DNA from: an uncultured virus (IMG/VR IMGVR_UViG_3300028591_000018)
Lineage: Duplodnaviria > Heunggongvirae > Uroviricota > Caudoviricetes
Direction: 5' to 3' (one strand)
IMG/VR virus record: IMGVR_UViG_3300028591_000018
Length of the DNA stretch: 64,000 nucleotides
Shown: in pieces, positions 23,071 to 62,778 of the stretch
How positions within the stretch are numbered: the first letter of the stretch is position 1
How the letters are laid out: each line of letters opens with the position of its first letter
The notes under the pieces: generated by a model
The model's database searches: none
Seen by the model: only the letters and a program-made list of their open reading frames with translations
What the model was told of the DNA's origin: nothing
Translations under genes and position numbers: made by a program

Positions 23071-23098
23071 CTATAAAAGGGCATGTTTTTTATGCGAA
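23071..23098 (-). promoter_or_regulatory. Phage promoter motif copy 1
   Basis: TTCGCA-TAAAAAACATGCCC-TTTTAT-A. Confidence 0.7.
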
Positions 23099-23109
23099 GT
23101 CAGAAAATA

Positions 23110-23406
23110 TCAGATTCTGTCCTCGCGTTCATCGAGTTCATGCTGGTGATTCTTATGACAGATCACGCATTCGGGAAAATTCGTACGGCATGAATAACAT
23201 TCAGGGCCATAGGCTTCTACGTACTCGTCAAGAAATTCTTTCCTTGTGATGACTGCTCCGCACTTCGGACAAATATAGCATTCCTTTTGCGGATCCCACA
23301 TCATAAATACTCCGCAGCAATCAGTAAGTACACCTTCACCATCCTGGTCATAAACGTCTTCATAGCGGTCACCAAAAATGGCACCGCAATCCACATCTCT
23401 TATCAA
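23110..23406 (-). CDS. Cys-rich Zn-finger protein
   Basis: CC, CPKC, CYSC and CVIC pairs. Confidence 0.6.
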   Translation of the reverse strand: MIRDVDCGAIFGDRYEDVYDQDGEGVLTDCCGVFMMWDPQKECYICPKCGAVITRKEFLDEYVEAYGPECYSCRTNFPECVICHKNHQHELDEREDRI

Positions 23407-23634
23407 GTTCGGTTTGGCTCCTTTCGAAATATTAATGGTCTATCCATTATACCCGAAAGCAGCTCCCATTAACCAAATAGAAAATATTCGTCCCTACGAC
23501 CTTATCAACCTTATTGATCTTATTGATCTCATTGGTCTTATTGACCTTATAGGTTTTTTCAACCTTCCAAATCGGTTGAAAAATACCCATCTTCAAACCC
23601 CTTAAAATCAGCATGAAAACCCTCCAAAAACCGC

Positions 23635-23915
23635 TTCTGCCCATTTGCCCACTTTTTTTTCTATATTACTATATATATTACATTTTTCATTTTTTAATTT
23701 CATTAATAAAAAAGGTGGGCAAATGGGCAGAAAGCCCTTTTTTGATCAATTTTACGAGTAAATTTGCCAAAAATCTCTGCCCACTTTTGATTTTAAAAGT
23801 GGGCAATTGCCCACTTTTTTTGGGCAGAAAGCAATTTTTTCAACTTCCAAAACCCAAAAACCCAAAATAAAAGTGGGCAGAAGCCCATTTTTGGCCACAA
23901 AAGTGGGCAGAAAAA
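23635..23915. repeat. TGCCCACTTT/AAAGTGGGCA repeat cluster with AT-rich core; probable replication origin
   Basis: About 10 (T)GCCCA / TGGGC(A) units in both orientations; a ~24-bp inverted repeat flanks a ~50-bp AT-rich spacer. Confidence 0.65.
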
Positions 23916-24293
23916 TGGACATAAAATTCGGCACCAAAACCGCTATTTTTTAACCACTTTTTCCACCTTTAAATTGCCTGTTACAACCCCTCTGACAATG
24001 TTAGCACCAAGAATATCGATGCAGTCTTCCCGACCTTTAAATGGACATTTTTCGCAATTGTTCTTATTTTTTTCAAGATTCGTGCAGTTGTTCAAAATAT
24101 CAAGTGTATCATTAGCAGACTTAAATGTTAACATCATCTTGTTTCTCCTTTTCTGTTTCAGAAATATCAATGCCTTCAGCCGGCAGCTCACGCTTTACCT
24201 CAAATACTTCAATGGCTTCTTCTTTAGCCTTCTGTTCATTCAAGGCATCGATGTACACCTGAGCAATATTCTCAACGATCTTTTCAAAAATAT

Positions 24294-24830
24294 TCATGCG
24301 ATCTTATGCCCTTTAACCGTAACACTGCGGTTTATGTTAAGACTTTTCGGAAAACGGTCCTCAAAAACATCCCACTGCTGATAAGGCAGCATCGGCTGAT
24401 CTTCTTCGGAAACACCAGGTTCTTCTTTAAGACTCTCCTTATACTTATTCAAATAATAGCGGGCGTCATTCCCAAAGGTATCACCGCAAATATCATCACT
24501 CTGATACGGGCAGCCCTGGCAGGTCTCGTACGAACGACAGCAATCAAAAGCAGAAATCACCTCTTCAAGCTTCCTGGAGGGTTCTTTGATCTCCATCGGA
24601 TTAATGTAACCGGCCGGTAAAATCGGAACACCGGTGCTTGAGTTACTTAGACCTTCTTTAAAATTCCGATACTCTTTCAAATACTCAATGGCGTCTTTGA
24701 CCATCTGACCGTCGCAGTCATCTTCAAGAGGCTCGTACGGGCAACTCTTACAATGGCTTTTATCCGGATTCAGGCCATAGCAGCATTCCAGACCATAAAT
24801 AACATTACTGATTTGATTCTTCTCCATCAC
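24294..24830 (-). CDS. Hypothetical protein with two Cys-rich repeats
   Basis: CC..CxxCPY..C..DA..YL unit occurs twice. Confidence 0.65.
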   Translation of the reverse strand: MMEKNQISNVIYGLECCYGLNPDKSHCKSCPYEPLEDDCDGQMVKDAIEYLKEYRNFKEGLSNSSTGVPILPAGYINPMEIKEPSRKLEEVISAFDCCRSYETCQGCPYQSDDICGDTFGNDARYYLNKYKESLKEEPGVSEEDQPMLPYQQWDVFEDRFPKSLNINRSVTVKGHKIA

Positions 24831-25585
24831 TAAAATCCTTCTAAAATTTCATAAGCTTCCCAGTTTCTTCCTTTGAATTCCCTGGTTATGATGTAAGTAT
24901 CCTCATCGTCCTCACGCTCAACCAGAAGCACATGCTCATTGTCTACGTGACTGGTACCTAAAATCTTCACCGGCCAGAGATCCATCTTGGTAGGTTTGAT
25001 GGAATAATAGACGATGAGAATATCTTTACCCACCATGGCAGGATCAGTTAGTTTGCCCCACGACAGTGTGTTCCAGTTCATGGTGTTCATAAAACTCCTC
25101 AGGTACTTTCAATTTAAGATCATCCTCAATGAGATTCTTAAGAAATGCGTCACAAATCTCGCGATTATCTTGTCTCGTCAGAATCCACACCCTTTTGAAC
25201 CCATAAGTTTCATCCATAATCGCAGCACCGAAATTAGCCTGAGTCGGTTCCTGTTCGACAATCACACGCATCTCTTCAGTGGCATTACTAATGAAAATAT
25301 CAACGGCTGGATGATAAGCTTCATACTCATCGACCGTAAGATTTTCCAAAACTGCAGGAGAACCATCTCCGGCAAGGGTAAAATACAATTCAATAACGTA
25401 GTACATCTGAACTCCTTTTATTCATACAACATTAGCAAAATTAAGACGACAAGCATTACCACCGGTAAGCTTAAAAGATAGATACCTAAAATGTCGTATT
25501 CATGATCTCTAAAAAATTTGCTGAGACGTTTCATATGTTCTTCTTTTAAAAAATAAATAGCCCTTGTTTAAGGGGCTTTTAATAC

Positions 25586-25765
25586 TTATTCAACAATACC
25601 GACGCTCCAGCGAGCGTCATTAAACCCTAAATTCCTTAGGGTGTTGCATAATTGCCGGGCACGGTATTCTTCACCGAATACCCGACTTTCTACATTATTT
25701 TTTGTGGTCCACGTAACCACGTAGACCTCCTTTATTTCTTTAATAACTACAATTTTCTTTTTCAT
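25586..25765 (-). CDS. 59-aa cassette gene (not in ORF track)
   Basis: MKKKIVVIKEIKEVYVVTW...; AAGGAGG RBS; flanked by a promoter motif and a terminator. Confidence 0.7.
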   Translation of the reverse strand: MKKKIVVIKEIKEVYVVTWTTKNNVESRVFGEEYRARQLCNTLRNLGFNDARWSVGIVE

Positions 25766-25776
25766 AGTTATCCTCC

Positions 25777-25804
25777 TTATTAAAGGAGCTGTAAATTATA
25801 CGAA
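25777..25804 (-). promoter_or_regulatory. Phage promoter motif copy 2
   Basis: TTCGTA-TAATTTACAGCTCC-TTTAAT-AAGGAGG. Confidence 0.7.
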
Positions 25805-26039
25805 AAACAGGCACTAATGCCTGTAATACTCATAACCCTTTTTATCATCATCTTCCTTTTCAACTTCCTCAATAATCTGCCAGATCTTATTCTCCGGCAT
25901 GTCCAGTGTCTCAGCAATCTCGCTGACCAAATATCCTTCATCGAGAAACTTGTAAATCTTAAGAATCAGTTGATCCTTTTGCATAATAAACTCCTATGAT
26001 AAAAAATAAGAAAAAAAATAAAGGGCTTGCGCCCTCTTC

Positions 26040-26354
26040 CTAGCAATTAATGCTAGGGTAATATGCTTCTGCCCATTCCTGGGCCATTTCTTCTGCTTCT
26101 TGCGGGGTTTCCGCAATAACACAGACTAACACATTTCTACTTCCTCCATGTTCATGGAGTTGTAGAATATATACACCTTCATCATCCTCCTCACTGGGAA
26201 TATAATTTCCCTGTGAGGGATTATCCGTTATATATTTATCCCAGGCACGAATTTTGTCCTGGGGCCAAATCTCGGCCTGACCGATAGTCAGACCGTCATC
26301 CCAATTATAAGAGTGGGAATAATTTCCCCACCCATTTATAAAATAAATGTTCAT
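26040..26354 (-). CDS. Acidic cassette gene
   Basis: MNIYFING...; AGGAGG RBS; own promoter and terminator. Confidence 0.75.
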   Translation of the reverse strand: MNIYFINGWGNYSHSYNWDDGLTIGQAEIWPQDKIRAWDKYITDNPSQGNYIPSEEDDEGVYILQLHEHGGSRNVLVCVIAETPQEAEEMAQEWAEAYYPSINC

Positions 26355-26401
26355 TTTTCCTCCTGGAGAGAATAAAATTTCAGACTTTTGTCTATTTCTC
26401 T

Positions 26402-26429
26402 CCATTAGAGGGCTTGTTGATATCGCGAT
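26402..26429 (-). promoter_or_regulatory. Phage promoter motif copy 3
   Basis: ATCGCG-ATATCAACAAGCCC-TCTAAT-G. Confidence 0.7.
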
Positions 26430-26691
26430 CGATCTATAAATCTAATTACTTTGTCCAAGGTCTTCGTTGTTATCCTCGGATTCGGATATGTCTATTAAAG
26501 AACTATGAACTTCTTTTTCTAACCAACATAATCTTCTAATCAATTCCTGAATTTCATCGTGGTCTCTTCCTACTTTAGTTTTCAAATCTTCATAATCTTG
26601 AATACCAGCAATGATCCCCAGAACCGCTAAAGTAGCCAGAATTCCAAACACAAAATATAAGGCGCCCATTAATCACTCCAATCATTCATTT

Positions 26692-27180
26692 CTAACTCAC
26701 AAACCACGGACCGGAAAACGCATCAAAAAACTTTTGCGGTAAAGGCAATCCGGTAAACTCCAGTTTGCTATCTTCCCACAACTGAGTTTTGATCTTCATC
26801 AAAATATCAATAGTTACCCGGCCGATGCCATTCATACAAATCAGGTTGTGTCTCGGTATCCGCATTAACTGAGCAAGGGTTGTAATATTGTTTCTCGCTA
26901 ACACCCCGGCAACACGGGTGGTCTCACGCTTGGAAAAATATTCTGAGAGCTTATCTGCCAGCTCTTGTTGGTATGCGGCTCGTGTTTTGTGAATAATAGT
27001 CTCCTTTGTCTTCATCTCAAGAAGGATCTTCACTTCCGAACGCCACAGTCCTTTTGTCGGAACTGTCTTCTCAACAAAGTCATTAAAGTCCAAAATATCA
27101 TTGTCCGTAAGAACTTTGATAACGTGTTTCGGACGTTTGAATCTTCGGTTTTTTAAAATACAAGTTTGAAGATTGTACAT
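26692..27180 (-). CDS. Protein with RNAP alpha-CTD/HhH-like domain
   Basis: RVAGVLARNNITTLAQL..NLICMNGIGRVTIDIL. Confidence 0.6.
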   Translation of the reverse strand: MYNLQTCILKNRRFKRPKHVIKVLTDNDILDFNDFVEKTVPTKGLWRSEVKILLEMKTKETIIHKTRAAYQQELADKLSEYFSKRETTRVAGVLARNNITTLAQLMRIPRHNLICMNGIGRVTIDILMKIKTQLWEDSKLEFTGLPLPQKFFDAFSGPWFVS

Positions 27181-27799
27181 AGATCCTTTTTTCTCCTTTC
27201 TATCCCAGTATTTTATAGATAAGCATTTTTCCGTCATAAAATCTAATCGTTATAAACGTTGGATAAGACCCAAGAGGATACGAACCATCTGTCATCTTTC
27301 CAATAGGTAATTCAATTGCATGCGACTTTTCGCATTCGGAAGCTTTATCAGATTCATCATATACTCGTCCGCAGATTTCACATTTATATACCGTCTGGTT
27401 GACAAGTTTTTCCATAAATATCAATCTTCCTCTCTATCTTTGTACTGTTCGTGCAAGACTTCGATGAGCTGCTTCGTTAATACAGGATCATAGCTATCTT
27501 TGTATAATCTCTCTATCACATCTTTCTGCCATTTATCTTTGTCCCCGCAATAAAACTTGTAAGGATTATCGCATTCAAAACCCATCACACCGCACAGGAA
27601 ACCAATCGAGATGTAACCTTTATCGCGTAAACGTTCTATGAGTTCTTTAAATTTCTTTTCTAATTTGTCTTCTTCTGATTCATCTTTTTCAAAATGAAAT
27701 TCATATTCATCTTCTTCACGAAGAAATTCATAATAATTAAATGTATACGGCATAATTATTTTCCCCTCTCGTTTTTTTCAAAATTTCGCCATTCCATCT

Positions 27800-28387
27800 T
27801 TAATCCAATATTGTTTTCCATACCACGAATGGGAGTGCATTATCGCTATATAGATCTCTAAGAGCAGTGTTCTTAGCAAGCTTATGAAACCCGTCTAAAC
27901 CGTTTGACGCGATTTCATTTAAAAATATTCGTATGAGCTTCTCGGTATCCGGATGAAAATGCCTGCCGCTTCTAACTTTGTTGTAGTATTCAAGCGGTGA
28001 TGCCTGTGTCCATTTATCTTTGCTGTACACCTTTCCGGCACCTACCCAGTCACATACCATTTCCACGACATATTTGTATGGGATCTTGTTAACTTTCAAT
28101 GACCCGTCTTCCTCATTGAAATCCGTCCAGAATTCCCAATGATGCGGATTGCATCCTTTATGATGCAGCCATGCGAGAGAATATCCGTTTTCAGCCGCGT
28201 CACCGTAATGAGGACTTTTGTCACCACAAAAGTATTTAGCAGACGAGAAGAACTCCGTCTTTCCAAATTTTGACAGGTCATGCGTTATTCCCTGCCATGT
28301 TATCCCGCAAGCCTTACACTCAAGGAATACGTACCATTTATGTTTACAGATAGTTTTGAAAAATTTCCAATATGAATTAAGACTCAT
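27800..28387 (-). CDS. DUF5662-like HD-superfamily protein
   Basis: HKWYV, HDLSKF, WLHHKGCNPHHWE, EMVCDW. Confidence 0.75.
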   Translation of the reverse strand: MSLNSYWKFFKTICKHKWYVFLECKACGITWQGITHDLSKFGKTEFFSSAKYFCGDKSPHYGDAAENGYSLAWLHHKGCNPHHWEFWTDFNEEDGSLKVNKIPYKYVVEMVCDWVGAGKVYSKDKWTQASPLEYYNKVRSGRHFHPDTEKLIRIFLNEIASNGLDGFHKLAKNTALRDLYSDNALPFVVWKTILD

Positions 28388-28596
28388 AAAATCCTTTATC
28401 GATACGGGCTTCAACGATGTAATAATATTCATCATCTGATACAATGTAAGTATCGTCGACGCCATCATATTTATAAGAAATGGAACATTTATCAAGATAA
28501 GCTACAGCTTTTTCTTTTGAAGTAAAAACACCAACAACATTTTCGCAGTCAAGAAGCGCGTTCACACCATAAAGAATATAAACGATAGAGTTCATC

Positions 28597-29040
28597 CTAA
28601 TTTTTACCCCTTTTAATAATCTCAAACCGAACCGGACCAATTCCCTTAATTTGTTTGAGCTGATCATTTGAATACGCTACCAGCAAACGCAAGTTTGTAA
28701 TTCCGTTTGCGATAAGAATGTTGTATGCACGAATCGCTTCTCCTTTACGATCTTCTGGTGACCGCATGATCAGACGGTTCTTCAATTCCAACTTTCTCAT
28801 TTCAATAGTGTTGCGAAACAGAAGTTCTTTTCTGCGCAAATCTTCAAGAAATCGTACTTCGCTTTTACTAAGGCCGTACATACGATGATTGTAAGGCGGA
28901 GTCCATTCGATCAAATCGTCCATATCGGCGATACCGTATTTATAAGTTAAAACATAGAACATGTTTTGCCGACGACTTGGCGCGATTTCATAAGAATGAT
29001 CAATGTAGTACATAAGAGAAATAGAAGTCGATTCATTCAT
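28597..29040 (-). CDS. Protein with RNAP alpha-CTD/HhH-like domain
   Basis: IRAYNILIANGITNLRLL..DQLKQIKGIGPVRFEII. Confidence 0.65.
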   Translation of the reverse strand: MNESTSISLMYYIDHSYEIAPSRRQNMFYVLTYKYGIADMDDLIEWTPPYNHRMYGLSKSEVRFLEDLRRKELLFRNTIEMRKLELKNRLIMRSPEDRKGEAIRAYNILIANGITNLRLLVAYSNDQLKQIKGIGPVRFEIIKRGKN

Positions 29041-34219: not shown

Positions 34220-34303
34220 AAAAAATAAAAGGAGAGTTTTGTTTCAACGGGTACTCTCCTAAACCCAAATCAATGAAGAGCGTACTAAAAGCTCTTCTCC
34301 ATC
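34220..34303 (-). ncRNA. ORF-less promoter-terminator unit (~85 nt)
   Basis: Promoter at 34302-34329, GAAGAGC/GCTCTTC hairpin, AGGAGAGT/ACTCTCCT terminator and T tract. Confidence 0.55.
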
Positions 34304-34329
34304 ACTATAGCACATGTTTTTTTCGCGAA
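34302..34329 (-). promoter_or_regulatory. Phage promoter motif copy 4
   Basis: TTCGCG-AAAAAAACATGTGC-TATAGT-G. Confidence 0.7.
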
Positions 34330-35113: not shown

Positions 35114-35141
35114 CTATTAAAGGAGCTGCAAATTACGCGAA
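35114..35141 (-). promoter_or_regulatory. Phage promoter motif copy 5
   Basis: TTCGCG-TAATTTGCAGCTCC-TTTAAT-A. Confidence 0.7.
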
Positions 35142-35146
35142 ATTCG

Positions 35147-35278
35147 AAAAAATAAAAGGATACTCAGTTAATCCGTAATTCCCTCTTATACGAAAGTTCA
35201 CCCTGAACATTGGCAAACGATCATTCATCAATTGGATGTTCGGTCCTTTGATGCGTCCTTACAAATCTTCTTTTCTCC
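35147..35278 (-). ncRNA. ORF-less promoter-terminator unit (~130 nt)
   Basis: Follows the promoter at 35277-35304 and ends at TTTTATTTTTT; no convincing RBS-ORF. Confidence 0.45.
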
Positions 35279-35304
35279 AATTAAGGCATTGCGAATATTG
35301 CGAA
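35277..35304 (-). promoter_or_regulatory. Phage promoter motif copy 6
   Basis: TTCGCA-ATATTCGCAATGCC-TTAATT-G. Confidence 0.6.
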
Positions 35305-35452: not shown

Positions 35453-35496
35453 TTCTACTCCTTTTTAAAAATTTTGAGCAGATCATCCGTGTCTGC

Positions 35497-35524
35497 TCAT
35501 TAAAGGAGATGCGTATTCTGCGAT
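35497..35524 (-). promoter_or_regulatory. Phage promoter motif copy 7, with GAGCAG hairpin at 35476-35498
   Basis: ATCGCA-GAATACGCATCTCC-TTTAAT-GAGCAG. Confidence 0.7.
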
Positions 35525-35804: not shown

Positions 35805-35832
35805 CCATAAAAGAGGTTGCGGATATCGCGAT
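35805..35832 (-). promoter_or_regulatory. Phage promoter motif copy 8
   Basis: ATCGCG-ATATCCGCAACCTC-TTTTAT-G. Confidence 0.7.
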
Positions 35833-51881: not shown

Positions 51882-52829
51882 TCATGCCGCAAACCCTTTT
51901 ACCAGACCCAGATCGGTCATAGGATTCAGCGGATGACAGTTGAAATGAAGCGGAATCACCGGTTCAAGTCCGTTTGCGAAATCCCGTACGATCTGATTAC
52001 TGAAATCATTGATACCGAAATCGATCACATCTTCAAGTCTCGGATCATGCTTATCCCAGAACCATCCCCAGCCGAAACTTTCAGCAGGCGGATTTTTCCC
52101 AAAGTGCTGATAAAGTTCATTCACCATGAAATATCCTTTGGAATAGTCTGTTGCCCGGGACTGCATAATGTCCTGACATTCTCGCTGAATGAGCTTAAGT
52201 ACACTCATATTATTTCCTGGAGTATGCTGATAGTTCGGGTTGGTACGGTCAAATATAAAATCGAACGGCCCGCCGGCACCGGTTTCAACCAGCTTCTGAT
52301 AAATCGGAACTTTCTTGGTTTTGCCGTCTTCACCCACTTCGATTTGAGTGCCGATCTTTTTATTTGTCAAACCGTAAAAAAGATCATTCTCTGCTTCTTC
52401 GCCGACTTTATCACGAACCCTCTCACGATAATTTTCCAGCTGCTGTGTCAGGACCATCGCCGTAGATGCCAGTGCAGCATTACGTTTCACCATAATGCCA
52501 TGACTGTACCAAATGGCGACGATCGACAAAATTTCCAGCAAAAGCGGGATCCAAAACACTTTCAAATAACGCCAGGCGCTTTTTCCGCCGATTTTAATAC
52601 AATTAGCAACATGTTTCTTACGGTCAGGTTCTTCTTCATTTTCATAGCGGGTCTGCTCTTCTTCAAGCTCCGCATGATTTTCTTCTGTTGCTGCTTCTGC
52701 TTCTTTCATTTTTGAGCAGGCTGTGATCAGCGCAGCAACACCCAAAATAATGCCGCCGGCTGTTAAAATTTCAGGACTTGCCTGCTTCAAGACAAGTCCC
52801 GCTTTCGATAAAATTACTTTTACGTTCAT
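51882..52829 (-). CDS. DUF6353-like membrane-anchored protein, paralog 1
   Basis: SPEILTAGGI; two hydrophobic segments; YRERV..G.E.E; GWGW. Confidence 0.7.
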   Translation of the reverse strand: MNVKVILSKAGLVLKQASPEILTAGGIILGVAALITACSKMKEAEAATEENHAELEEEQTRYENEEEPDRKKHVANCIKIGGKSAWRYLKVFWIPLLLEILSIVAIWYSHGIMVKRNAALASTAMVLTQQLENYRERVRDKVGEEAENDLFYGLTNKKIGTQIEVGEDGKTKKVPIYQKLVETGAGGPFDFIFDRTNPNYQHTPGNNMSVLKLIQRECQDIMQSRATDYSKGYFMVNELYQHFGKNPPAESFGWGWFWDKHDPRLEDVIDFGINDFSNQIVRDFANGLEPVIPLHFNCHPLNPMTDLGLVKGFAA

Positions 52830-52837
52830 ACAACCCC

Positions 52838-53924: not shown

Positions 53925-53981
53925 TTTTGTTTCCTTTCTTTTTTTTTTTCAAAAAATAAAGAGCAGATAATCCATGTCTGC

Positions 53982-54009
53982 TCTTTAAAGCACTTGATTT
54001 TTTCGCGAA
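53982..54009 (-). promoter_or_regulatory. Phage promoter motif copy 9, with GAGCAG hairpin at 53961-53983
   Basis: TTCGCG-AAAAAATCAAGTGC-TTTAAA-GAGCAG. Confidence 0.7.
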
Positions 54010-54015
54010 CCTGAT

Positions 54016-54798
54016 TTAGAGAACTGTAAGACGGTTGCGATAATGATAAATTGCAATATACGGTGTTCCGTTCTTCGTCATACCGGTTGTATAGTCAAAC
54101 ATGATGCTTTGTGATCCGTCAAATTTCCCGGACCGTTTCCAACCGATATTTTCGAAGTTCGTATTGATTCCGAGCAGAGCTTTTGTGTAATCATCGAGAT
54201 AGAGCTCTTCTTCGGTTTCATAAATACCCTGAAGATCCCTTTCGACGGATTTCACATGCTCCATACTGTCATGAAAATATCTTGTGGTAATTGAATCATA
54301 AAACAGCGTGTCCCCATGCCCGGTTTCAATAATTCCGCGGACCGCACCTTCTGTTTCGAACGGATGCTTTTCTACCTGCTTTTCCATAGCAGTATCCCGG
54401 ATCGCCTGTTCTTTTTTATCACCGACGGTTTCCAAGGTCGCATCCATATAATCCTTCAAATATGATTCAGAAAGCGCATATGCAGTGGATAGAGCTGCAT
54501 AGCGCTTTACCATTCGTGTCGTGTTCACCACCAGACATCCGATTGTCAGACCTAAAATAATCACAACAGGAATGAACCTTTTCCACACGACTTTTATTAT
54601 TTCTTTAGGAGTTAATTCCTCAACCCCCATTTCTTCTTTGGCCTCTTCAATATCTTCTGCGGATTCTCTTCCGGCTTTTACAGCCAGAATAACCGCCGAG
54701 ACCATACCGATAATTACAGCACCCGTCGCAATCGGGGTACTGTTTGCTTTTGCCCACATCACAAAATGTTGGGCAAGCGCTTTGATTGGTACTTTCAT
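54016..54798 (-). CDS. DUF6353-like protein, paralog 2
   Basis: NSTPIATG; two hydrophobic segments; FYDSITTRYF; IGW. Confidence 0.7.
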   Translation of the reverse strand: MKVPIKALAQHFVMWAKANSTPIATGAVIIGMVSAVILAVKAGRESAEDIEEAKEEMGVEELTPKEIIKVVWKRFIPVVIILGLTIGCLVVNTTRMVKRYAALSTAYALSESYLKDYMDATLETVGDKKEQAIRDTAMEKQVEKHPFETEGAVRGIIETGHGDTLFYDSITTRYFHDSMEHVKSVERDLQGIYETEEELYLDDYTKALLGINTNFENIGWKRSGKFDGSQSIMFDYTTGMTKNGTPYIAIYHYRNRLTVL

Positions 54799-55149
54799 TT
54801 GTTTCCTCCTACAAAAAATACGCTGAAACTTCATCCGCAGCATCACGCATGTTGCAGAAAAGTTTATGCGCTTCACTGTCCGGATTTGCCTGAGCAGCCC
54901 GGGCGTTCATCCGGTTGATAAAAATATCAATCAGATTGATCAGCTCATCTTCAAATCTATGCTCGATGAGATAATTTTTTAATTCATTCAACCCCTGACG
55001 CTTCTGAGCGATCGTCAGTTCTTTTTCAGGTGAGATCGGATGATCCGGGAAGCTCACCTGAATATCGATATAATTTTCAATGATATCGATAGCAATTCGA
55101 ACATCATTTAAATAGACAGGAGCTTCATCCTCAGGATTGTAGTAGACCA

Positions 55150-55908
55150 TTAAATAATCATCTCCATCGGCCGCGGCATCGGCAGATCAATCACATAATA
55201 TTCAAGGCCGCTTTCATCCGTATCTTTAAAAATATGAGGATAAAGCATACTTACACCATAACGTCTGGTCAGATCATACGAGTCCCATCCGTAAGCAAAA
55301 TACTTTTGGTCCATCGGTTCCCGTACTTTGGCCAGTTTGAAAAATTCAGCCATCTCGCAGCATTCCGGGCCTTTTTCCATTTTTACATTAAGCTCTGAAA
55401 TGGCGTTTGTGACATCTTCAATGCACGAAACAGTAAAAAATGAATCATATCCCGGAAGCATACAGGTGATCCCATCATATTCTTTCGGAGGATCATTATG
55501 AATATTCTCCCGGGTAACTTCTGAGATGATCCGATCATCGCTTTCTTTTCCATTTTGAAAGACGTTATGCTGCCGGTATTGGTTATATGCTGTTGTAACT
55601 CCGGCTGCATATACAGTCAGATCCCTTATCCGGTGATGAGATATCACCGCTGAACTGACAATGCAAAACAATGTAGCCAACAGACAAAGAAAAGAAGGAG
55701 CATAAATTTTGACTAATGTTTTACCCATTTCAAAGCTTTGAGTTTCCTCTTCGGCAGCTTCATTTAATACTTCTGCAGCTTCTTCGGTTTCTTTGATCGT
55801 CAAAATATAAAGTCCGATCAACCCGATTCCTGCGGCTGCACTTAAAAGAAAAGGAACATTCCGCTGAAGGATCTTCAATGCGGCTGCTCCTGCTTTAGCA
55901 AGATTCAT
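55150..55908 (-). CDS. DUF6353-like protein, paralog 3
   Basis: NVPFLLSAAAGIG; two hydrophobic segments; YGW. Confidence 0.65.
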   Translation of the reverse strand: MNLAKAGAAALKILQRNVPFLLSAAAGIGLIGLYILTIKETEEAAEVLNEAAEEETQSFEMGKTLVKIYAPSFLCLLATLFCIVSSAVISHHRIRDLTVYAAGVTTAYNQYRQHNVFQNGKESDDRIISEVTRENIHNDPPKEYDGITCMLPGYDSFFTVSCIEDVTNAISELNVKMEKGPECCEMAEFFKLAKVREPMDQKYFAYGWDSYDLTRRYGVSMLYPHIFKDTDESGLEYYVIDLPMPRPMEMII

Positions 55909-56477: not shown

Positions 56478-56529
56478 ATTTTTTTTTCTCCTTTTAACAA
56501 AAAATTAAGAGCAGATCATCTATGTCTGC

Positions 56530-56557
56530 TCAATAAAGGAGTTGTAAATTTCGCGAT
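56530..56557 (-). promoter_or_regulatory. Phage promoter motif copy 10, with GAGCAG hairpin at 56509-56531
   Basis: ATCGCG-AAATTTACAACTCC-TTTATT-GAGCAG. Confidence 0.72.
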
Positions 56558-56877
56558 CAGTTTGAGTCTGATTCAAAAACCCGAATTACTTTATAATCAA
56601 AAAGTTTTGCTCCGAGTTCATCAAGTTCATCGGCGGTCAGATTCTTTCCCCGCTTTTCAAACGGGCATGCATAATCAATAGAAGTCATGTACAGTGCGTA
56701 CTGAGCAATATGTGCCGGAAGGGCTCCGATCACATGTTTGCCTTTAATATCATCAATGGTAACGCTGGCTTTTACTTCTCCGGTAATTCCGCGGCGTTTC
56801 AGCCACTCTACAGTACCCTCATGACGGGTCACAATAAGGGTTTCAATTTTAGGGGTTTGCGTATCTGCAACGGTCAT
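56557..56877 (-). CDS. Csx16 (Cas_VVA1548)-like protein
   Basis: LIVTRHEGTVEWLKRRG...VIGALPAHIA...RGKNLTADEL...GAKL matches the Csx16 pattern (S/T)RHxG..EW / VIGxLPxHxA. Confidence 0.75.
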   Translation of the reverse strand: MTVADTQTPKIETLIVTRHEGTVEWLKRRGITGEVKASVTIDDIKGKHVIGALPAHIAQYALYMTSIDYACPFEKRGKNLTADELDELGAKLFDYKVIRVFESDSN

Positions 56878-57531: not shown

Positions 57532-58065
57532 TTAACTTCTTTTCTTAAACATTCGATCGAAATCGAATGCATGCCGGGAAATATCTTTCCCCGATGCAGA
57601 GGTGATCGTCTCACCTCCTGCCTCAAACGTGTTCTGGCGCTGCATCAATGCGCCATAACATATGAATGATACTACGGTACCTGCAATGCTCAACAGAGCA
57701 TTGAGGAAACCATTTCTCTTAATAGATTTAACCTCTTCTACCCGAAGAGCAATCTCCTCCTCGCGGCACTGCTTATCGAACTCGATTTTTTCAAGTTCGG
57801 CTTCGGATTTTTTCTTTTCGAGTTCAAGCCGTGTATGTGCGACTTGTACCTCTTTCATCGTTTTTAACGATGAAATCAATTTTTCCGATTTTTCTGGCTG
57901 TTCATCCGAACAAGCCATGGCCTTTTTCAATAGTTCATCCGACGCTTCTGCGTAGATGTCTTCCGGAATTTCAACGATTTCCGGGTTTTCAACAATTTGT
58001 GCCGCTTCTTCAGCGACACTTATTTCATTCACAGATTTATTATTTTTTTGATACTTCTTTCCCAT
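57532..58065 (-). CDS. Coiled-coil protein with C-terminal TM (cassette gene)
   Basis: Own promoter, hairpin and terminator; AAAGGAG RBS. Confidence 0.7.
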   Translation of the reverse strand: MGKKYQKNNKSVNEISVAEEAAQIVENPEIVEIPEDIYAEASDELLKKAMACSDEQPEKSEKLISSLKTMKEVQVAHTRLELEKKKSEAELEKIEFDKQCREEEIALRVEEVKSIKRNGFLNALLSIAGTVVSFICYGALMQRQNTFEAGGETITSASGKDISRHAFDFDRMFKKRS

Positions 58066-58112
58066 TTTTCTCCTTTTTTACAAAAAATAAAGAGCAGATC
58101 ATCCGTGTCTGC

Positions 58113-58140
58113 TCTTTAAAGGCGTTGATTTTCTCGCGCT
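58113..58140 (-). promoter_or_regulatory. Phage promoter motif copy 11, with GAGCAG hairpin at 58092-58114
   Basis: AGCGCG-AGAAAATCAACGCC-TTTAAA-GAGCAG. Confidence 0.65.
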
Positions 58141-58494
58141 CAGTTTTCGTATTTAATTTTTACATCAAATACAGCGCTCAGTGAAAAATCAAGATTTTTC
58201 AGGGTATCCTGATCTTTCAACTCCAGAAGCAACTCTGCTGACCCATCGGAATGCACAATTTTATAAAGTGTTCCGATCGGCTCTGGTTTTACAGATTTTT
58301 TGATCAATCTGCCAATACACCAGCCGATAGCTCCTCCGATCGCAAACCAGATCGGAATCGGCACCGCTATAATGAAATTCTCAATCTCCTGAATCATGAA
58401 AACTCCGTATAAAAACTTTTTTCATTTTTCCTCCCCCGGGAATTTTTGCATTAAGAATATACCATTTTGAATTGTCACCTGAGTACGGAACTTT

Positions 58495-58827
58495 TCAGTC
58501 AGATTCATATCCTCTTTCTATCAGTTCAAGAATTGCATAATTTGCAATATCTTTCAAAGTATCTTCGATGCTTTCATCAGCAACATGCACATCGTGACTA
58601 CTATAAAGCCTTTTCAAACGATTGAGTTTATCGGTGAGACGATAGCAGATTGAATTCGGAAATTCCTTCCGAAGTTCCGCAAAACTGTCGCCATAATCTG
58701 CATTTTTCCGTTCATACAAATCTGTCAGTTCCTTACAGATTTTTTTATGCTTATTAACCTTATTATGTTGTTTACCCATTTCCATTAATTCATCACAGTA
58801 TTTTTTATCATATTCGGTGGTATTCAT
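58495..58827 (-). CDS. DUF1599 / nucleotide-modification-associated domain protein
   Basis: KNADYGDSF, RLTDKLNRL, ESIEDTLKDIANYAIL. Confidence 0.8.
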   Translation of the reverse strand: MNTTEYDKKYCDELMEMGKQHNKVNKHKKICKELTDLYERKNADYGDSFAELRKEFPNSICYRLTDKLNRLKRLYSSHDVHVADESIEDTLKDIANYAILELIERGYESD

Positions 58828-59211
58828 TTTTTCCTCCTCCATTTTGAATGCCCTATTAATGCCGAAACGGTTACTGCTTGTTCTATAATATTCACAAATC
58901 ACATTAAAACACATAGCCAAGCTCCACCAATCCACTGATAATATCATCCAAATGCTCATCTGCAAGCCGTTGAATGGCTCCGCGCATTCGTTCCGGGTCT
59001 TTTTCCATTAAACATTCATACAATTTATTACATAGCCATGCTTTTTCATAGCAATCAATAATCTTCCGGTTAGCTTGTTTTTCCGGTTGATATACCGCAC
59101 GGGAATATGATCCTCTGAGGCCCTTCACAAGCTTCTCGGTAAGCACCACATTGTACTCGTTGATTCGTTGATTTGTGATCGGATTTACTTCATCAACCAT
59201 ATAGATTTTTC

Positions 59212-59535
59212 TCATTTTTTCTGATCCTTTTCATATTGTCGTTTGAAGAATTCAAAAGCCTTGTCGACCGTAAGATAACCGACTACTTCATCACCATATT
59301 CTTCTTCTGTAATATCAAAACCCATCGCTTCCAGAAGTCCGTACTCATGACCATATGAACCCATATTGCACACAACATCCCCACATCCAGGCTTCCTAAG
59401 TTCCCATTTTCCATCTGAGGAATACCGGATCTGTCCGCCAAATATTGGATTATCATCACATAAGAATTCATGCGGAATTCCGGCGATTTCAAGTTCTTCA
59501 TGCAATTTCTGTAACGGTTTAATTAAATCTGTCAT
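59212..59535 (-). CDS. Hypothetical protein
   Basis: MTDLIKP with GGAGG RBS; GSYGHEYGLLEAMG..VVGYLT. Confidence 0.7.
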   Translation of the reverse strand: MTDLIKPLQKLHEELEIAGIPHEFLCDDNPIFGGQIRYSSDGKWELRKPGCGDVVCNMGSYGHEYGLLEAMGFDITEEEYGDEVVGYLTVDKAFEFFKRQYEKDQKK

Positions 59536-59559
59536 TTTACCTCCAATAAGATCCAATAG

Positions 59560-59658
59560 AAAAAAAATAAAAGAAGTTGAACCGAATCGAACGGTTCCAG
59601 GCGGGCAGACAAGACCCGTCGCCCACTCACAAACTTTCGTTTGCTTTAACTTCTTCTC
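59560..59658 (-). ncRNA. tRNA-like small RNA (non-canonical)
   Basis: 8-bp closing stem, GAAA-tetraloop arm, central arm and GAACCG-TTCGATT-CGGTTC T-arm; own promoter (copy 12, 59657-59684) and T tract. Confidence 0.65.
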
Positions 59659-59683
59659 ATTAAAGTCCATGTTAATATTGCGT

Positions 59684-59826
59684 AAAAAATAGCAGGAGAT
59701 GTGTTAACTATAAACTCTACCTGTTGTGCAGCTATCTCACAACAGCAACTTTATAGCAACGGATATCTCCTGCTTAATTTAATGCCAGCTCATTTTTTCT
59801 CCTTTCTTTAAGTGAACTAGCTCCTA
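59684..59826 (-). ncRNA. Small RNA with SD and MSWH minigene (59779-59793)
   Basis: Promoter copy 13 at 59823-59850; AAAGGAG-AAAAA-ATG AGC TGG CAT TAA; long AGCAGGAGAT/ATCTCCTGCT terminator stem. Confidence 0.65.
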
Positions 59827-59848
59827 TTTAGACTATGTTTTTCATGCG

Positions 59849-59954
59849 AAAATAAATAGGAGAAGCGCCTGCAATTAACGCTTCTCCTTTCAAATAATTA
59901 ATAATATTTGTACAGTGCTAGGTCATTTTTCCTCCTTCCTATTGCACTCTCATC
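59849..59954 (-). ncRNA. Small RNA with SD and MT minigene (59918-59926)
   Basis: Promoter copy 14 at 59953-59980; AAGGAGG-AAAA-ATG ACC TAG; AGGAGAAGCG/CGCTTCTCCT terminator. Confidence 0.65.
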
Positions 59955-59979
59955 ATTATAGAAGATGTTTTTTTCGCGG

Positions 59980-60071
59980 AAAAAATAAGAGCCTTTGCAA
60001 CGACTCTTATTTTTAATAAATATCTTTGCACCTCCTTTCTTCATAGGAACCTGCTTTCGGGTATGCAGGTC
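59980..60071 (-). ncRNA. Small RNA with orphan SD
   Basis: Promoter copy 15 at 60070-60097 (TTCGCA-N14-TATAAT); ACCTGC/GCAGGT hairpin; AAAGGAGGTG; AAAAATAAGAG/CTCTTATTTTT terminator. Confidence 0.6.
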
Positions 60072-60097
60072 ATTATAGAGAATGTAAATCTTGCGAA

Positions 60098-60514
60098 TTA
60101 TTTCCGCAATTTCGAGAGGATCCAGAAAAATCTTCGAAAGCTTTCATAATACGTTTCCTTACAGCAGGGAACGTCCATACGAGCCGTCAGGTATTCATAG
60201 GAAATTCCTTCTGTGACTCCTTTGAAAATATAATTTCCCAAATCCTCCGAACAAGCTTTTGCCGCCTTATCAACCATATCCAGATGGTCTGTCAGCAATT
60301 CCCGCCGCAGCACAGCCGTAAGAACCGGATCACTCGGCCCCGCGGATTTTCCAATTTTTTCGGAATACGGCGATCCCATCAGGCTGATCATTTTCAGCTC
60401 TTCCTTCCATTCCGGATACTGAAGGCAAAAATGCTTCAGCTCATAAAACCGATGTCTGCTGATCCAGTATGAACTGCGCTTTGAGATCTCAGGACGAATA
60501 TTGGTACCCATCAC
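60098..60514 (-). CDS. Putative transcriptional regulator (RinA/ArpU-like)
   Basis: ELKHFCLQY.EW..DPV..A; C-terminal HTH-like ISYEYL..TYYESFRRFFW. Confidence 0.5.
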   Translation of the reverse strand: MMGTNIRPEISKRSSYWISRHRFYELKHFCLQYPEWKEELKMISLMGSPYSEKIGKSAGPSDPVLTAVLRRELLTDHLDMVDKAAKACSEDLGNYIFKGVTEGISYEYLTARMDVPCCKETYYESFRRFFWILSKLRK

Positions 60515-60753
60515 CGCTCTCCCTTCCAGACAAAGCCTGTATGCTCGAAAAGCAGTTTGGGCGAAATATAATAATTGATCCGCCCGTATTTGCTGTTCAT
60601 TTCCTCAATAGAGGTGACCAGTTTGCCGTTCCGTGTTGCGTTCCCGATAGGTAGCCATCCACAGATCAAACCGGCCCGCACCCAGCACGCATCCTTCCCG
60701 TACGCCCGCGCTGCCACGGACACCGGTACATTACCGTTAGAATACTCTTCCAT
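60511..60753 (-). CDS. Small winged-HTH / excisionase-like protein
   Basis: VPVSVAARAYGKDACWVRAGL..LPIG..YYISP. Confidence 0.55.
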   Translation of the reverse strand: MEEYSNGNVPVSVAARAYGKDACWVRAGLICGWLPIGNATRNGKLVTSIEEMNSKYGRINYYISPKLLFEHTGFVWKGER

Positions 60754-60836
60754 AAATTTCTCCTTTCGTGAGTCTTCTATCTCCGAAACTTATTCTATGA
60801 TAGCCAGGCGTAATCTAAAATAAAAACTTATGTTGA

Positions 60837-60890
60837 AAAAATAAAAGGAGTTGTAAAAATAAAAGGAGTTGTAAAAATAAAAGCCCTTGT
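60837..60890. repeat. 18-bp tandem repeat (2 exact copies and 1 variant)
   Basis: AAAAATAAAAGGAGTTGT twice, then AAAAATAAAAGCCCTTGT. Confidence 0.85.
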
Positions 60891-60908
60891 GGGGCTCAAC
60901 TTCCTTTC

Positions 60909-61085
60909 TTATTCAAATTTTGCTGAGATCTTCTCAGCAAAGTCCATTCCGATTTCGAACGCTTCTCCATAAAGCGTCATAAACATCTTGAAATACCACC
61001 GACGAAGCGGTGGAATACAACAAATAATTATGGACAAAACTGTCCAAATCAATAAAAATCCAAAATAAATATTTATAAAATTCAT
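60909..61085 (-). CDS. 58-aa membrane peptide (not in ORF track)
   Basis: MNFINIYFGFLLIWTVLSIIICCIPPLRRW...; AAAGGAG RBS; cassette context. Confidence 0.7.
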   Translation of the reverse strand: MNFINIYFGFLLIWTVLSIIICCIPPLRRWYFKMFMTLYGEAFEIGMDFAEKISAKFE

Positions 61086-61131
61086 CTTTTTTCTCCTTTT
61101 TTAAAACAACGAGCAGATCATCCATGTCTGC

Positions 61132-61159
61132 TCAATAAAGGAGTTGTAAATTTTGCGAA
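61132..61159 (-). promoter_or_regulatory. Phage promoter motif copy 16, with GAGCAG hairpin at 61111-61133
   Basis: TTCGCA-AAATTTACAACTCC-TTTATT-GAGCAG. Confidence 0.72.
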
Positions 61160-61183
61160 AAATAAGAGGCCTTGCGGCCTATC

Positions 61184-61348
61184 TTATTCAATCGTAATCG
61201 GGGTGATCACGATTTCTTCTACCACGATTTCTTCCAGTTTTGGTCCGGGATCAAGTCCCGGGGTTTCATTAATTTTCTCTGATCCGCTGCACGCGGATAA
61301 AGTAATGGCCATTATGGCCAGCAATACAATGATAAAGAACTTTTTCAT
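61184..61348 (-). CDS. Small lipoprotein (cassette gene)
   Basis: MKKFFIIVLLAIMAITLSAC lipobox; promoter copy 17 at 61372-61399. Confidence 0.75.
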   Translation of the reverse strand: MKKFFIIVLLAIMAITLSACSGSEKINETPGLDPGPKLEEIVVEEIVITPITIE

Positions 61349-61438
61349 TTTATCCTCCTTTAGCTCTTTCTTCATTAGAGGATCTGTTCTTATCGCGAAA
61401 AAAATAAGAGCCCTTGTGGGCTCCATTTTGATTCGGTT

Positions 61439-61768
61439 TCATTTCGCCTGCTTGGCCCAAAATCCCATGCCAAGCTCCGATGCATATTCATGCATCAGAT
61501 CTATGTCATTATATGACCAATGTACCCATTGGTACTTGGCCATATCAGAGAACCTATCAGGTTCTCCTTCCGGTGCGGTTTCCCACACGCCTTCGACCTT
61601 AGCGGTCGCAATAATCTCACCTGCATTATTATGCAGGTAGAAGTTTGTTATTGGTTCCACAACGTATTTTACGTTGCGGTTTAATACATACAGTGCCATC
61701 AGGCTGACGACACAAACAACTGCTGCGATAACAGCAGTCTTCATCATAATGGAATTAAACTTTTTCAT
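61439..61768 (-). CDS. Membrane-anchored cassette protein
   Basis: N-terminal TM; promoter copy 18 at 61801-61828; GAGCCCACAAGGGCTC terminator. Confidence 0.7.
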   Translation of the reverse strand: MKKFNSIMMKTAVIAAVVCVVSLMALYVLNRNVKYVVEPITNFYLHNNAGEIIATAKVEGVWETAPEGEPDRFSDMAKYQWVHWSYNDIDLMHEYASELGMGFWAKQAK

Positions 61769-61788
61769 TTTTATTCTCCTTTCAAATT

Positions 61789-62217
61789 TTAAGTTTTCTT
61801 CCATAGTAGACCTTGCGCATATCGCGACCAGAGATAGATACTCAGGTAACTTGCACCGCAGCCGGCAGTAATACCGCTTTGGATTTTTACAAAAGTATTA
61901 CGGTCATAGTGTTTATATGGAAGAAGAAAAGAAGGAAGAGTAAGAAAAACTTTTCCGCATTTTTGACAGCGGTATTTTGGAAGATAGATCCAATATCGGA
62001 ATCCATAAAAATCAATCATTTTGCGTTTGCGATATCCGTACCGCCACATGGCAAGGCCGGTATTGCATTCAGGACAGCATACGGGTTTAGTGTATCGAAG
62101 ATGATACCCATCAGAATAAACTATCGGCTCGTATTCGATCATGATCATGTAAAAAATAAGTGCATAATACATACGAAAAAATAAAAAGGATAAGTTACAA
62201 ATTTGTGATCCGTTCAC
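61789..62217 (-). CDS. Zn-ribbon protein (DUF6431-like); start uncertain
   Basis: CPEC..YGYRKR..RCQKCG..LPSFLLPYKHY. Confidence 0.6.
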   Translation of the reverse strand: MNGSQICNLSFLFFRMYYALIFYMIMIEYEPIVYSDGYHLRYTKPVCCPECNTGLAMWRYGYRKRKMIDFYGFRYWIYLPKYRCQKCGKVFLTLPSFLLPYKHYDRNTFVKIQSGITAGCGASYLSIYLWSRYAQGLLWKKT

Positions 62218-62374
62218 ACCGGATCATTCATAAATCCTATCCTGTAAAAATTCAAGCTACAATTTTGCTCTCCACGGGTCATGTAGCCAACCTCTGTTTA
62301 TGACCGTTCCTTTCCAAGTTTACGGTTAACCCAATTTCCGGTAAGGCACTTTCATAAAGCACACCTTTCCCTCA
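62176..62374 (-). ncRNA. Structured ~200-nt RNA unit
   Basis: Promoter copy 19 at 62372-62399; several hairpins; AGGATAG/TTATCCT closing stem and T tract. Confidence 0.55.
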
Positions 62375-62433
62375 CTATAGTCCATGCGCACATCGCGAAA
62401 AATAAAGAGCCCTTGTGGGGCTCGTTTCAAAGG

Positions 62434-62655
62434 TCAGTGATGACCTTTGAACAGAAATACTTCTAAGTCTGAGTCGTAGTCCAACTCTGACTCTGAAACC
62501 TTTTTTACTGGCTGCTTTTCTGCAGCCTCTACGTCTTCGATATACCCTTTGATATATCCAAAAACCCCAATTAACGTGACAGTAGCTGCCACAAAACAAT
62601 AAATTGTATTTATTGTTTCAATAATTTTTTTGATTATTTTAAAAAATTTTTTCAT
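62434..62655 (-). CDS. Single-TM cassette protein
   Basis: AAAGGAG RBS; promoter copy 20 at 62704-62731, GAGCAG hairpin at 62683-62705, terminator at 62398-62423. Confidence 0.7.
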   Translation of the reverse strand: MKKFFKIIKKIIETINTIYCFVAATVTLIGVFGYIKGYIEDVEAAEKQPVKKVSESELDYDSDLEVFLFKGHH

Positions 62656-62778
62656 ATTTTTTTTCTCCTTTTTAAAAATAAAGAGCAGATCATTTATGTC
62701 TGCTCAATAAAGGCGTTGTAAAAACCGCGATTATAAATTGTAGGAGTATAATAACTTCTACAAGGAGAAAAAATATCA

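Follow-up and report, generated by a model that had tools for sequence, protein, structure and literature searches.

The 64,000-nucleotide (nt) stretch of DNA analysed here (the window) is part of the genome of an uncultured tailed phage (IMG/VR record IMGVR_UViG_3300028591_000018) and carries 20 copies of a 26-base motif, all on the same strand, ahead of early and middle genes. From the sequence comparisons described below, these copies are probably promoters read by the phage's own RNA polymerase, a predicted protein of 932 residues. A sequence-only reading of the window had proposed that the motif marks promoters of a phage RNA polymerase, and the proposal is supported: the window encodes a polymerase, the motif tracks the polymerase gene in related phages, and it is not enriched in a host-type genome.

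The sequence-only reading listed 20 minus-strand copies of the pattern TCGCR-N7-CA-N4-C-TWTAWT-R, co-oriented and nearly all at gene or unit boundaries. All 20 are there (Table 1), each with a low coordinate one higher than had been given, and all lie on the gene strand. The observation was upheld in full, and 15 of the 20 have a Shine-Dalgarno sequence (SD) and a start codon between +12 and +60. Six copies have no mismatch to the pattern, 11 have one and three have two. The exact pattern occurs 6 times in the window, always on the minus strand, compared to 0.00 times in 100 shuffles, and allowing up to two mismatches raises the count to 22, with 21 on the minus and 1 on the plus strand, compared to 1.89 +/- 1.59 expected. 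The two extra matches, one within nrdD (42091, minus strand) and one on the plus strand (61606), are consistent with chance expectation. A weight matrix built from the 20 copies, and partly circular in being trained on the same sites, scores them at 22.8–45.0 bits, and the next best sites in the 64 kb, both on the plus strand, reach 10.1 and 9.7 bits. The empty range between 10 and 22 bits shows a discrete class of sites with no copy missed in the window. The scan of the genome and its relatives that had been suggested was run in this way, as a pattern and weight-matrix search; it gave no further copies in the window and found the motif in relatives.

The 20 copies align without gaps. C2, G3, C13, A14, C19 and T20 are invariant, C4 is present in 19 copies and T22, A23, T25 and G26 in 17 each, and the six bases after position 26 are rich in purines. 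The hexamer spacer had been described as fixed at 14 bp; the geometry is indeed fixed, with the TCGCRN "hexamer" lying 13–14 bp from TWTAWT. The 26-bp alignment contains no internal inverted repeat, unlike the DNA-hairpin promoters of the N4 type, and hairpins are found only downstream of position 26. No second promoter motif was found in the late region (1–23000) by weight matrix.

The polymerase gene lies downstream of the last copy of the motif. Its product matches phrog_4291 ("RNA-dependent RNA polymerase") with E=0 and 1083 bits, residues 32–926 of the protein aligning to positions 6–907 of the 909 in the profile. The DxDGD metal-binding loop is present as GADFDGD, and G537–D543 are invariant in 19 metagenomic homologues and also in 8 aligned homologues including those of four isolated phages. 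An AlphaFold model (19 sequences) has a predicted local distance difference test score (pLDDT) of 73.7 and a predicted template-modelling score (pTM) of 0.60. Searching with Foldseek gave 14 matches at E<=0.001, the top ones being QDE-1 (7y7t_A, E 1.6e-5, prob 1.00) and plant RDR2; next come two phage polymerases, P74 gp62 and P32 gp64, and after them beta-prime/Rpb1 chains (the largest subunits of the cellular enzymes). Searching the PDB by sequence with the same protein gave no significant match. Helix-turn-helix (HTH) modules are indicated by the Pfam families HTH_23 and HTH_28 near residues 109–145 and by Sigma70_r4_2 at 897–920, though for HTH_23 and Sigma70_r4_2 the whole-protein score passes the cut-off and no single stretch does (HTH_28 has one passing stretch). 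Together, the sequence and the model suggest a putative single-chain, two-barrel RNA polymerase of the YonO/QDE-1 type.

Homologues in isolated phages are 36–46% identical to this protein: orf75 of Lactococcus phage 1706, gp55 of Faecalibacterium phage FP_oengus, gp99 of Arthrobacter phage Kardesai and a product of Streptomyces phage Psst2. The phage 1706 protein is placed in one of five YonO-like families, the "1706 family", in the available portion of PMC2919709. According to the part of bioRxiv 10.1101/842583 that we draw on, a "putative RNA polymerase" with two flanking HTH domains and a DxDGD loop is the signature of a supercluster that comprises Lactococcus 1706, Faecalibacterium FP_oengus and several actinophage clusters. 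As a separate observation, the stretch HYG..R.SGRYPWGSG (residues 39–54; 21826–21873, minus strand) is invariant in all aligned polymerases and falls in a segment modelled with very low confidence; it may be a docking or packaging signal.

The motif follows the polymerase gene across relatives with polymerases of 36–50% identity and hosts of two phyla. Among 27 loci fetched by polymerase homology (43–83% identity), 24 contain matches at 14 bits or more, 78 in total on the strand of the polymerase gene and 0 on the other. The same 24 loci have a variant of the form CGCR-A-rich-ACATGCCCTTTTATR some 0.9–1.1 kb upstream of the polymerase gene, the counterpart of the copy at 23072; the loci without it are L005, L023 and L007, the last of which has no upstream flank. 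A similar picture emerges for isolated phages. FP_oengus has 13 matches on the gene strand and 1 on the other (10 bits), and Kardesai and Psst2 (59% G+C) have 10 and 8, respectively, on the gene strand and 0 on the other (14 bits). Phage 1706, whose polymerase is 36% identical, has eight copies of a diverged form, YCRCAWGTTTTACAYAYRCTATAGTR. The first box there reads CAC instead of CGC, and the ACA box, the A+T block and the spacing are unchanged. Most copies in the four isolated phages are grouped where the early region begins; an extra copy precedes the polymerase operon in FP_oengus and Psst2, and none of 10 bits or more does so in Kardesai or 1706. Over whole related records, matches with up to two mismatches number 12/1, 21/3, 14/2 and 13/1 (forward/reverse), compared to 0–3 per strand for a reversed-pattern control.

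The converse also holds in most cases. Scanning 2.9 million viral contigs with a 25-base variant pattern gave at least 117 stretches, from which 79 loci were examined. Where the downstream flank was at least 1500 nt (78 loci), a polymerase homologue of 38–55% identity starts 904–1397 nt downstream on the same strand in 75, a result that shows linkage and not independent events, as the variant pattern is one homologous block across the relatives. What gives the argument its strength is the multi-copy early clusters, whose payload genes are unrelated in phages of different phyla although the motif is the same. For a host-type control we used a 3.6-Mb Lachnospiraceae metagenome-assembled genome (MAG), a single stand-in that carries a related prophage and is not this phage's host. 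It shows no enrichment (47/41 matches compared to 44/39 for the control pattern), and its two close matches both lie in the prophage.

Isolates and window share a gene order of endonuclease, exonuclease, polymerase, small open reading frame (ORF), and packaging and late genes. After the polymerase gene and small ORF there is a non-coding, G+C-rich block of about 200 nt (18632–18828, minus strand), which is not a copy of the motif. Its core, GGGGGG..AAAA..CACCCCCTCCCC..ATCGCG..TCT..TTCTCCGGGGG..ATTTTT, is invariant in four relatives (polymerases about 47–83% identical). In the actinophage relatives the corresponding place, directly behind the polymerase gene, holds the physical ends of the genome, and the conserved block is thus probably a cohesive-end or packaging region.

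Could the copies be host promoters? In the alternative with most in its favour, TWTAWT is the -10 hexamer of sigma-A promoters, CGCR and ACA are activator or repressor sites replacing a -35, and the phage polymerase serves other genes, such as the late ones. Early genes of most phages use the host polymerase, a temperate phage must be inducible by it, and YonO is a late-gene enzyme; the block is moreover a perfect TATAAT in two window copies and in the Arthrobacter and Streptomyces relatives, and TATAGT in two more window copies. We nevertheless consider this explanation improbable. The claim that the motif is not of the sigma70 kind holds on account of its short fixed geometry, the T-rich A-11 position and a leader hairpin beginning at position 26. 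CGCR lies 13–14 bp and CA 5 bp from the hexamer, shorter than the 16–18 bp needed between a sigma70 -35 and -10, and no -35-like hexamer is found at 16–18 bp. The would-be A-11 (column 21, the second -10 position) is T in 12 copies, A in 6 and C in 2, and the last hexamer position is T in 17. Scanning the window for sigma70-like sites returned none of the 20 copies and no enrichment (25 compared to 26.5, and 47 compared to 49.9, in shuffles). Conservation runs past the hexamer into G26, the purine run and the leader, phages whose hosts span two phyla preserve the 26-bp geometry, the host-type genome shows no excess of the pattern, and no activator or repressor family was detected in the Pfam scan.

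The leaders bear on where the RNA may begin. The sequence-only reading noted that in many copies a hairpin or SD starts right after TWTAWT, and this was borne out: among the 20 leaders, taken as the 32 nt from position 26, nine have a folding energy no higher than -8 kcal/mol, compared to 8% of random 32-mers, hairpins start at position 26 in six copies, and an SD lies almost as close in the copy at 25778. These six hairpins are copies of one 23-nt element, GAGCAGACAYRGATKATCTGCTC, whose first base is motif position 26 and which is mostly followed by a T-rich run. Seven more copies of it follow the motif in the two nearest relatives, with stems GAGAGGA/TCCTCTT or GAGGAGA/TCTTCTC and the 9-nt loop CAYGGATGA kept; the element is missing in more distant relatives. 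Pairing across copies is complete (63/63 cells), two of the seven pairs having two-sided, compensatory changes, though the sample is small and the sequences are related; when the partner is shifted by 1–3 columns as a control, only 41–72% of cells pair. A selected hairpin with its 5' arm starting at position 26 argues that the RNA begins at or before that position, and not 6–8 nt later, where a sigma70 start would cut off the 5' arm. The covarying hairpin thus lies upstream of the start expected for sigma70. It may stabilise the 5' end or be bound by a phage protein.

Phages are known to replace the host sigma factor, and a second alternative is that the host core polymerase is redirected by a phage sigma-like or specificity factor, as by SPO1 gp28, with the two-barrel protein uninvolved. 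The early region has many small ORFs of unknown function that could hide such a factor. A factor of this kind would itself have to be conserved; these ORFs, however, lack conservation even between the window and its two closest relatives, whereas the motif and polymerase gene are conserved. Pfam finds neither a sigma factor nor a cI-like repressor family among the 107 frames scanned, and the factor would be needed before the first gene is transcribed. We regard this explanation as most improbable. Scarcely credible is a third, in which the copies are mainly protein-binding or recombination sites, such as one-orientation repressor sites (the stoperators of mycobacteriophage L5 are an example) or mosaic boundaries, with incidental promoter-like features: the sites are asymmetric, in one orientation and at unit boundaries, homology breaks and contig joints from other samples lie near them, and a phage with an integrase needs some silencing mechanism, but no repressor family was found among the 107 frames, each copy has an A+T block and a conserved purine start (with SD and start codon in 15 of 20), the motif persists in phage 1706, which is virulent, and in lytic actinophages, and breakpoints at shared modules are expected of any repeated promoter, part of their enrichment stemming from the module itself being the aligned piece.

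If the copies are promoters of the phage's own polymerase, then a single polypeptide would unite a two-barrel catalytic core, as in cellular RNA polymerases, with an HTH module at each end. The boxes CGCR (positions 2–5) and (A/G)CA (12–14) are 11 bp apart and therefore face the same side of the helix, and the HTH modules would probably dock there. Opening of the DNA would take place at CTWTAWT (19–25), which is rich in A+T, and RNA would start at or beside the conserved G26 and continue into the purine-rich stretch. The twelve copies beside the integrase gene would drive early cassettes, the last of them leading into the replication block, and five copies would drive small middle units after the helicase gene, with those at 26403 and 25778 acting further along the middle region. 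The variant copy at 23072 would drive the operon of endonuclease, exonuclease and polymerase. As there is no further copy in the 23 kb downstream, the late genes are probably also read from 23072, as one long transcript by analogy with YonO in SPbeta; read-through into them would, on this idea, need joined genome ends.

Several observations weigh against reading the copies as promoters of the phage polymerase. The relative that has been tested, YonO, transcribes late genes, and here the motif is absent from the late region (1–23000). The downstream block of the actinophages, being a perfect TATAAT, could also be used by host sigma-A. Three of the 78 pattern loci have no polymerase gene in the flank: in two an endonuclease and a truncated exonuclease follow the motif, and in the third (L095) the motif is at 4501, downstream of a terminase gene, from which some relatives may carry copies in the late region. 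In alignments the HTH recognition helices show no interpretable change that tracks the CAC first box of phage 1706. The fold matches have low template-modelling scores (0.2–0.3), as would be expected for a multi-domain model, and for the assignment we place weight on the consistency of the match list and the catalytic motif. One RNA-library run contains about a third of the sampled words, as contigs, from which transcription starts, strand and level cannot be read; a library of this kind may also include DNA. One of its contigs stops at 58105, which is 9 nt into the transcript predicted for the copy at 58114, an observation given no weight.

A further difficulty is that the gene for the polymerase has a copy of the same promoter type ahead of it. 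With the first genes also carrying the motif, the first enzyme must be supplied by the virion, or else be made from a host-type promoter that escaped detection. Carriage of the polymerase in the virion and its injection with the DNA are proposed as the first genes already use the promoter and as the phage 1706 homologue, orf75, is annotated "structural protein" in EU081845.1, like capsid and tail proteins and unlike its neighbours, a label found in the database record alone. We put this forward tentatively, and lean slightly against it. The integrase implies a prophage state, from which induction needs a route by way of a host-type promoter, so virion delivery would not be the whole story.

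A more far-reaching picture, which we think doubtful, is of a self-contained and host-independent system. The 932-residue enzyme would find its promoter by its two HTH modules, each reading one upstream box, with no sigma factor, enter in the virion, and transcribe the early and middle programme as well as its own gene from the variant promoter. The phage genome would be silent by default when the enzyme is missing, the choice between lysogeny and growth would be made by an autocatalytic polymerase loop and not by a classical repressor, and late genes would be reached only by read-through across the joined ends.

How does this system compare with those already described? The window polymerase is a full-length member of phrog_4291, and the gene order is that of the 1706/FP_oengus/actinophage supercluster. 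The phage, which comes from ruminant gut metagenomes, has relatives of about 90 kb, compared to 43–62 kb for most of the supercluster isolates listed. The supercluster papers, in the portions available, treat the protein only, and the main text of 10.1101/842583 never uses the word "promoter". We found no published motif or promoter for the HTH-flanked two-barrel polymerase family in the literature, the supplements of 10.1101/842583 apart. Promoters specific to a phage polymerase are well known; one for an HTH-flanked single-chain two-barrel enzyme is apparently not in print.

YonO, of the Bacillus prophage SPbeta, is likewise a single-chain two-barrel polymerase of a temperate Firmicutes phage, and is a proven DNA-dependent RNA polymerase whose promoter sequence is left open in the part of PMC5467207 available to us. 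As described there, a single promoter, P_YonO, serves a very long operon, which resembles the single copy at 23072 ahead of a copy-free late region. YonO transcribes only late genes, however, whereas here 20 copies of the motif mark early and middle genes, and it belongs to a different one of the five families distinguished in the available portion of PMC2919709. Two-barrel polymerases carried in the virion are described, in the excerpts at hand, for the crAss-like phage phi14:2 (gp66; bioRxiv 10.1101/2020.03.07.982082) and for P23-45, whose gp96 is fused to the tape measure and transcribes pre-early genes from phage-specific motifs (PMC10770324). The P23-45 study relied on the same reasoning, that a motif co-occurs with a polymerase, and the structures of P74 gp62 and P32 gp64 are among the fold matches of the window polymerase. 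These two virion enzymes are much larger or are fused to other virion proteins, and the excerpts of the two papers report no terminal HTH modules; virion carriage in the present case, unlike theirs, rests on the database label of the 1706 homologue.

Promoters of the T7 type have some 20 or more conserved bases, occur in many co-oriented copies with an A+T stretch before a purine start, and are read by one phage enzyme. The present motif is alike in outline, but it consists of two or three parts separated by variable spacers and extends to about -25, and the T7 enzyme has a right-hand fold in place of the two barrels. The ancestor of cellular RNA polymerases is believed to have looked much like the single-chain two-barrel enzymes. 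This family has built-in DNA-binding modules and a well-defined consensus in hundreds of phage genomes, and since easily grown Lactococcus, Arthrobacter and Streptomyces phages carry the consensus, promoter recognition by a minimal two-barrel enzyme is directly testable. A compact polymerase–promoter pair for Firmicutes and Actinobacteria could be an orthogonal expression tool, and for annotation the motif marks transcription units in a widespread group of gut and soil phages.

The motif copies are closely associated with terminators. Many copies were said to abut the T tract of the previous unit, and 12 of the 20 have at least six T in the 12 bases upstream. Upstream of at least eight copies there is a hairpin resembling a terminator, with a T tail that continues into TCGC, and terminator-like sites are enriched about threefold in the window (27 compared to 8.6, and 50 compared to 14.0, in shuffles, for two scans). 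The shared terminators of GAGCCC(C) type that had been pointed out exist as three copies in all (Table 1). Three consecutive promoter-to-terminator units on the minus strand (60071–59980, 59954–59850 and 59824–59684), of 92, 105 and 141 nt, hold only mini-ORFs of 2–4 codons and fold stably, and we consider them candidate small RNAs. Searching the whole window with Rfam (gathering thresholds) and for tRNAs gave nothing, so neither the leader hairpin nor the units without ORFs correspond to a curated RNA family.

The sequence-only reading also supposed that the repeats allow cassettes to be shuffled. Here the support is indirect: homology breaks lie near the motif more often than expected by chance and contigs join near copies. 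Two related records of about 90 kb are collinear with the window but mosaic. Replication genes and the polymerase operon align at 67–83% identity, most early and middle payloads do not align, and several alignments consist of just an 80–100-nt promoter-plus-leader module. For one record (G002) 16 of 37 alignment ends, and for the other (G001) 7 of 23, are no further than 60 nt from the centre of a motif, compared to 4.07 +/- 1.88 and 2.54 +/- 1.50 for random placement (permutation test, 0/5000 and P = 0.011, respectively); the test covers promoter-bearing regions and overstates independence, part of the excess arising from the module itself being the aligned piece. Contigs from other ruminant-gut samples, matched at 90% likeness in metagenomes and so possibly from relatives, join 59807 to 61103, 61162 or 61174 to 59788, and 62661 to 59205. 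Every end of these joints falls no more than about 60 nt from a motif copy or a terminator; the one exception, 59205, is at the start of ORF 58904–59215. The data fit payload exchange at shared promoter and terminator modules, and the repeated promoter-plus-leader and terminator modules would provide the shared sequence for exchange between related phages.

Almost all genes of the window are on the minus strand. Read from right to left, the opposite-strand integrase gene (62779–63999) comes first, followed by about 9 kb of small early genes with 12 copies of the motif. A replication block of about 18 kb without copies has three DUF6353 paralogues, a 1332-residue primase-polymerase, a single-stranded-DNA-binding protein, a dUTPase, NrdD and a helicase. 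Five copies follow the helicase gene within 1.5 kb, and then come about 11 kb of small ORFs of unknown function that include the copies at 26403 and 25778. The copy at 23072 precedes the genes for the endonuclease, the exonuclease and the 932-residue protein, beyond which are the small ORF, the G+C-rich block, an HNH nuclease, terminase, portal and a protease-capsid fusion, and then tail genes, holin, peptidase and tape measure. A megablast search of the phage collection with nrdD found no near-identical phage record.

Table 1. Motif copies in order of the minus strand, with leader hairpins, shared terminators and genes of the polymerase operon. Leader offsets (+n) are counted from motif position 26.
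Feature	Position	Strand	Remarks
Copy 1	62705-62730	-	First unit, divergent from integrase gene; leader hairpin at +1; SD and ATG at +51
Copy 2	62373-62398	-	Adjoins terminator GAGCCCCACAAGGGCTC and T tract
Copy 3	61802-61827	-	2 mismatches; SD and ATG at +35
Copy 4	61373-61398	-	Adjoins terminator GGAGCCCACAAGGGCTCT and T tract; SD and ATG at +26
Copy 5	61133-61158	-	Leader hairpin at +1; terminator 61167-61180 just upstream
Copy 6	60071-60096	-	Heads 92-nt unit ending at terminator; no credible ORF
Copy 7	59954-59979	-	Heads 105-nt unit; no credible ORF
Copy 8	59824-59849	-	2 mismatches, lowest score; heads 141-nt unit; no credible ORF
Copy 9	59658-59683	-	First SD and ATG at +124
Copy 10	58114-58139	-	2 mismatches; directly after stop codon of upstream ORF; leader hairpin at +1
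Copy 11	56531-56556	-	Directly after stop codon of ORF 56557-56877; leader hairpin at +1
Copy 12	53983-54008	-	Last before 18-kb replication block; leader hairpin at +1
Copy 13	35806-35831	-	Just after helicase gene; terminator upstream; leader hairpin GGAGAGAA..TTCTCTCC
Copy 14	35498-35523	-	Leader hairpin at +1; heads 42-residue ORF
Copy 15	35278-35303	-	
Copy 16	35115-35140	-	Heads 68-residue ORF
Copy 17	34303-34328	-	
Copy 18	26403-26428	-	Leader hairpin is a paralogue of that of copy 13
Copy 19	25778-25803	-	SD begins at +2
Copy 20	23072-23097	-	Variant CATGCCCTTTTATR; heads endonuclease-exonuclease-polymerase operon; 28-nt leader hairpin and T tract downstream
23-nt leader hairpins	35476-35498, 53961-53983, 56509-56531, 58092-58114, 61111-61133, 62683-62705	-	
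Shared terminator hairpin	60881-60897; second copy 62407-62423	-	GAGCCCCACAAGGGCT(T)
One-C-shorter form of shared terminator	61407-61424		Occurs once
Endonuclease gene	22529-22867	-	Between copy 20 and polymerase gene; place kept in relatives
Exonuclease gene	21994-22557	-	Between copy 20 and polymerase gene; place kept in relatives
RNA polymerase gene (putative)	19189-21987	-	932 residues; GADFDGD at residues 537-543; HTH near 109-145 and near 886-929

Some of the other genes deserve brief mention. In the late region, the ORFs 12891–13718 and 15467–16312 (minus strand) share a short N-terminal DUF7211 motif and flank the large terminase gene; beside them lies the sole plus-strand ORF of that region (16316–17110, 264 residues), which has no clear family. 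A 147-residue ORF at 28597–29040 (minus strand) has a sub-threshold match to the C-terminal domain of RNA polymerase alpha (E 3.6e-4, 20.6 bits, cut-off 23.8) that was given no weight. The DUF6353 paralogues (51882–52829, 54016–54876 and 55150–55908, minus strand) lie ahead of the primase-polymerase gene, and FP_oengus also has three. In the early region, the minus-strand ORFs 56557–56877 and 58495–58965 encode a protein of the Cas_VVA1548 family (E 1.3e-17) and one with DUF1599, labelled "nucleotide modification associated" (E 1.1e-11), which may have counter-defence or DNA-modification functions.

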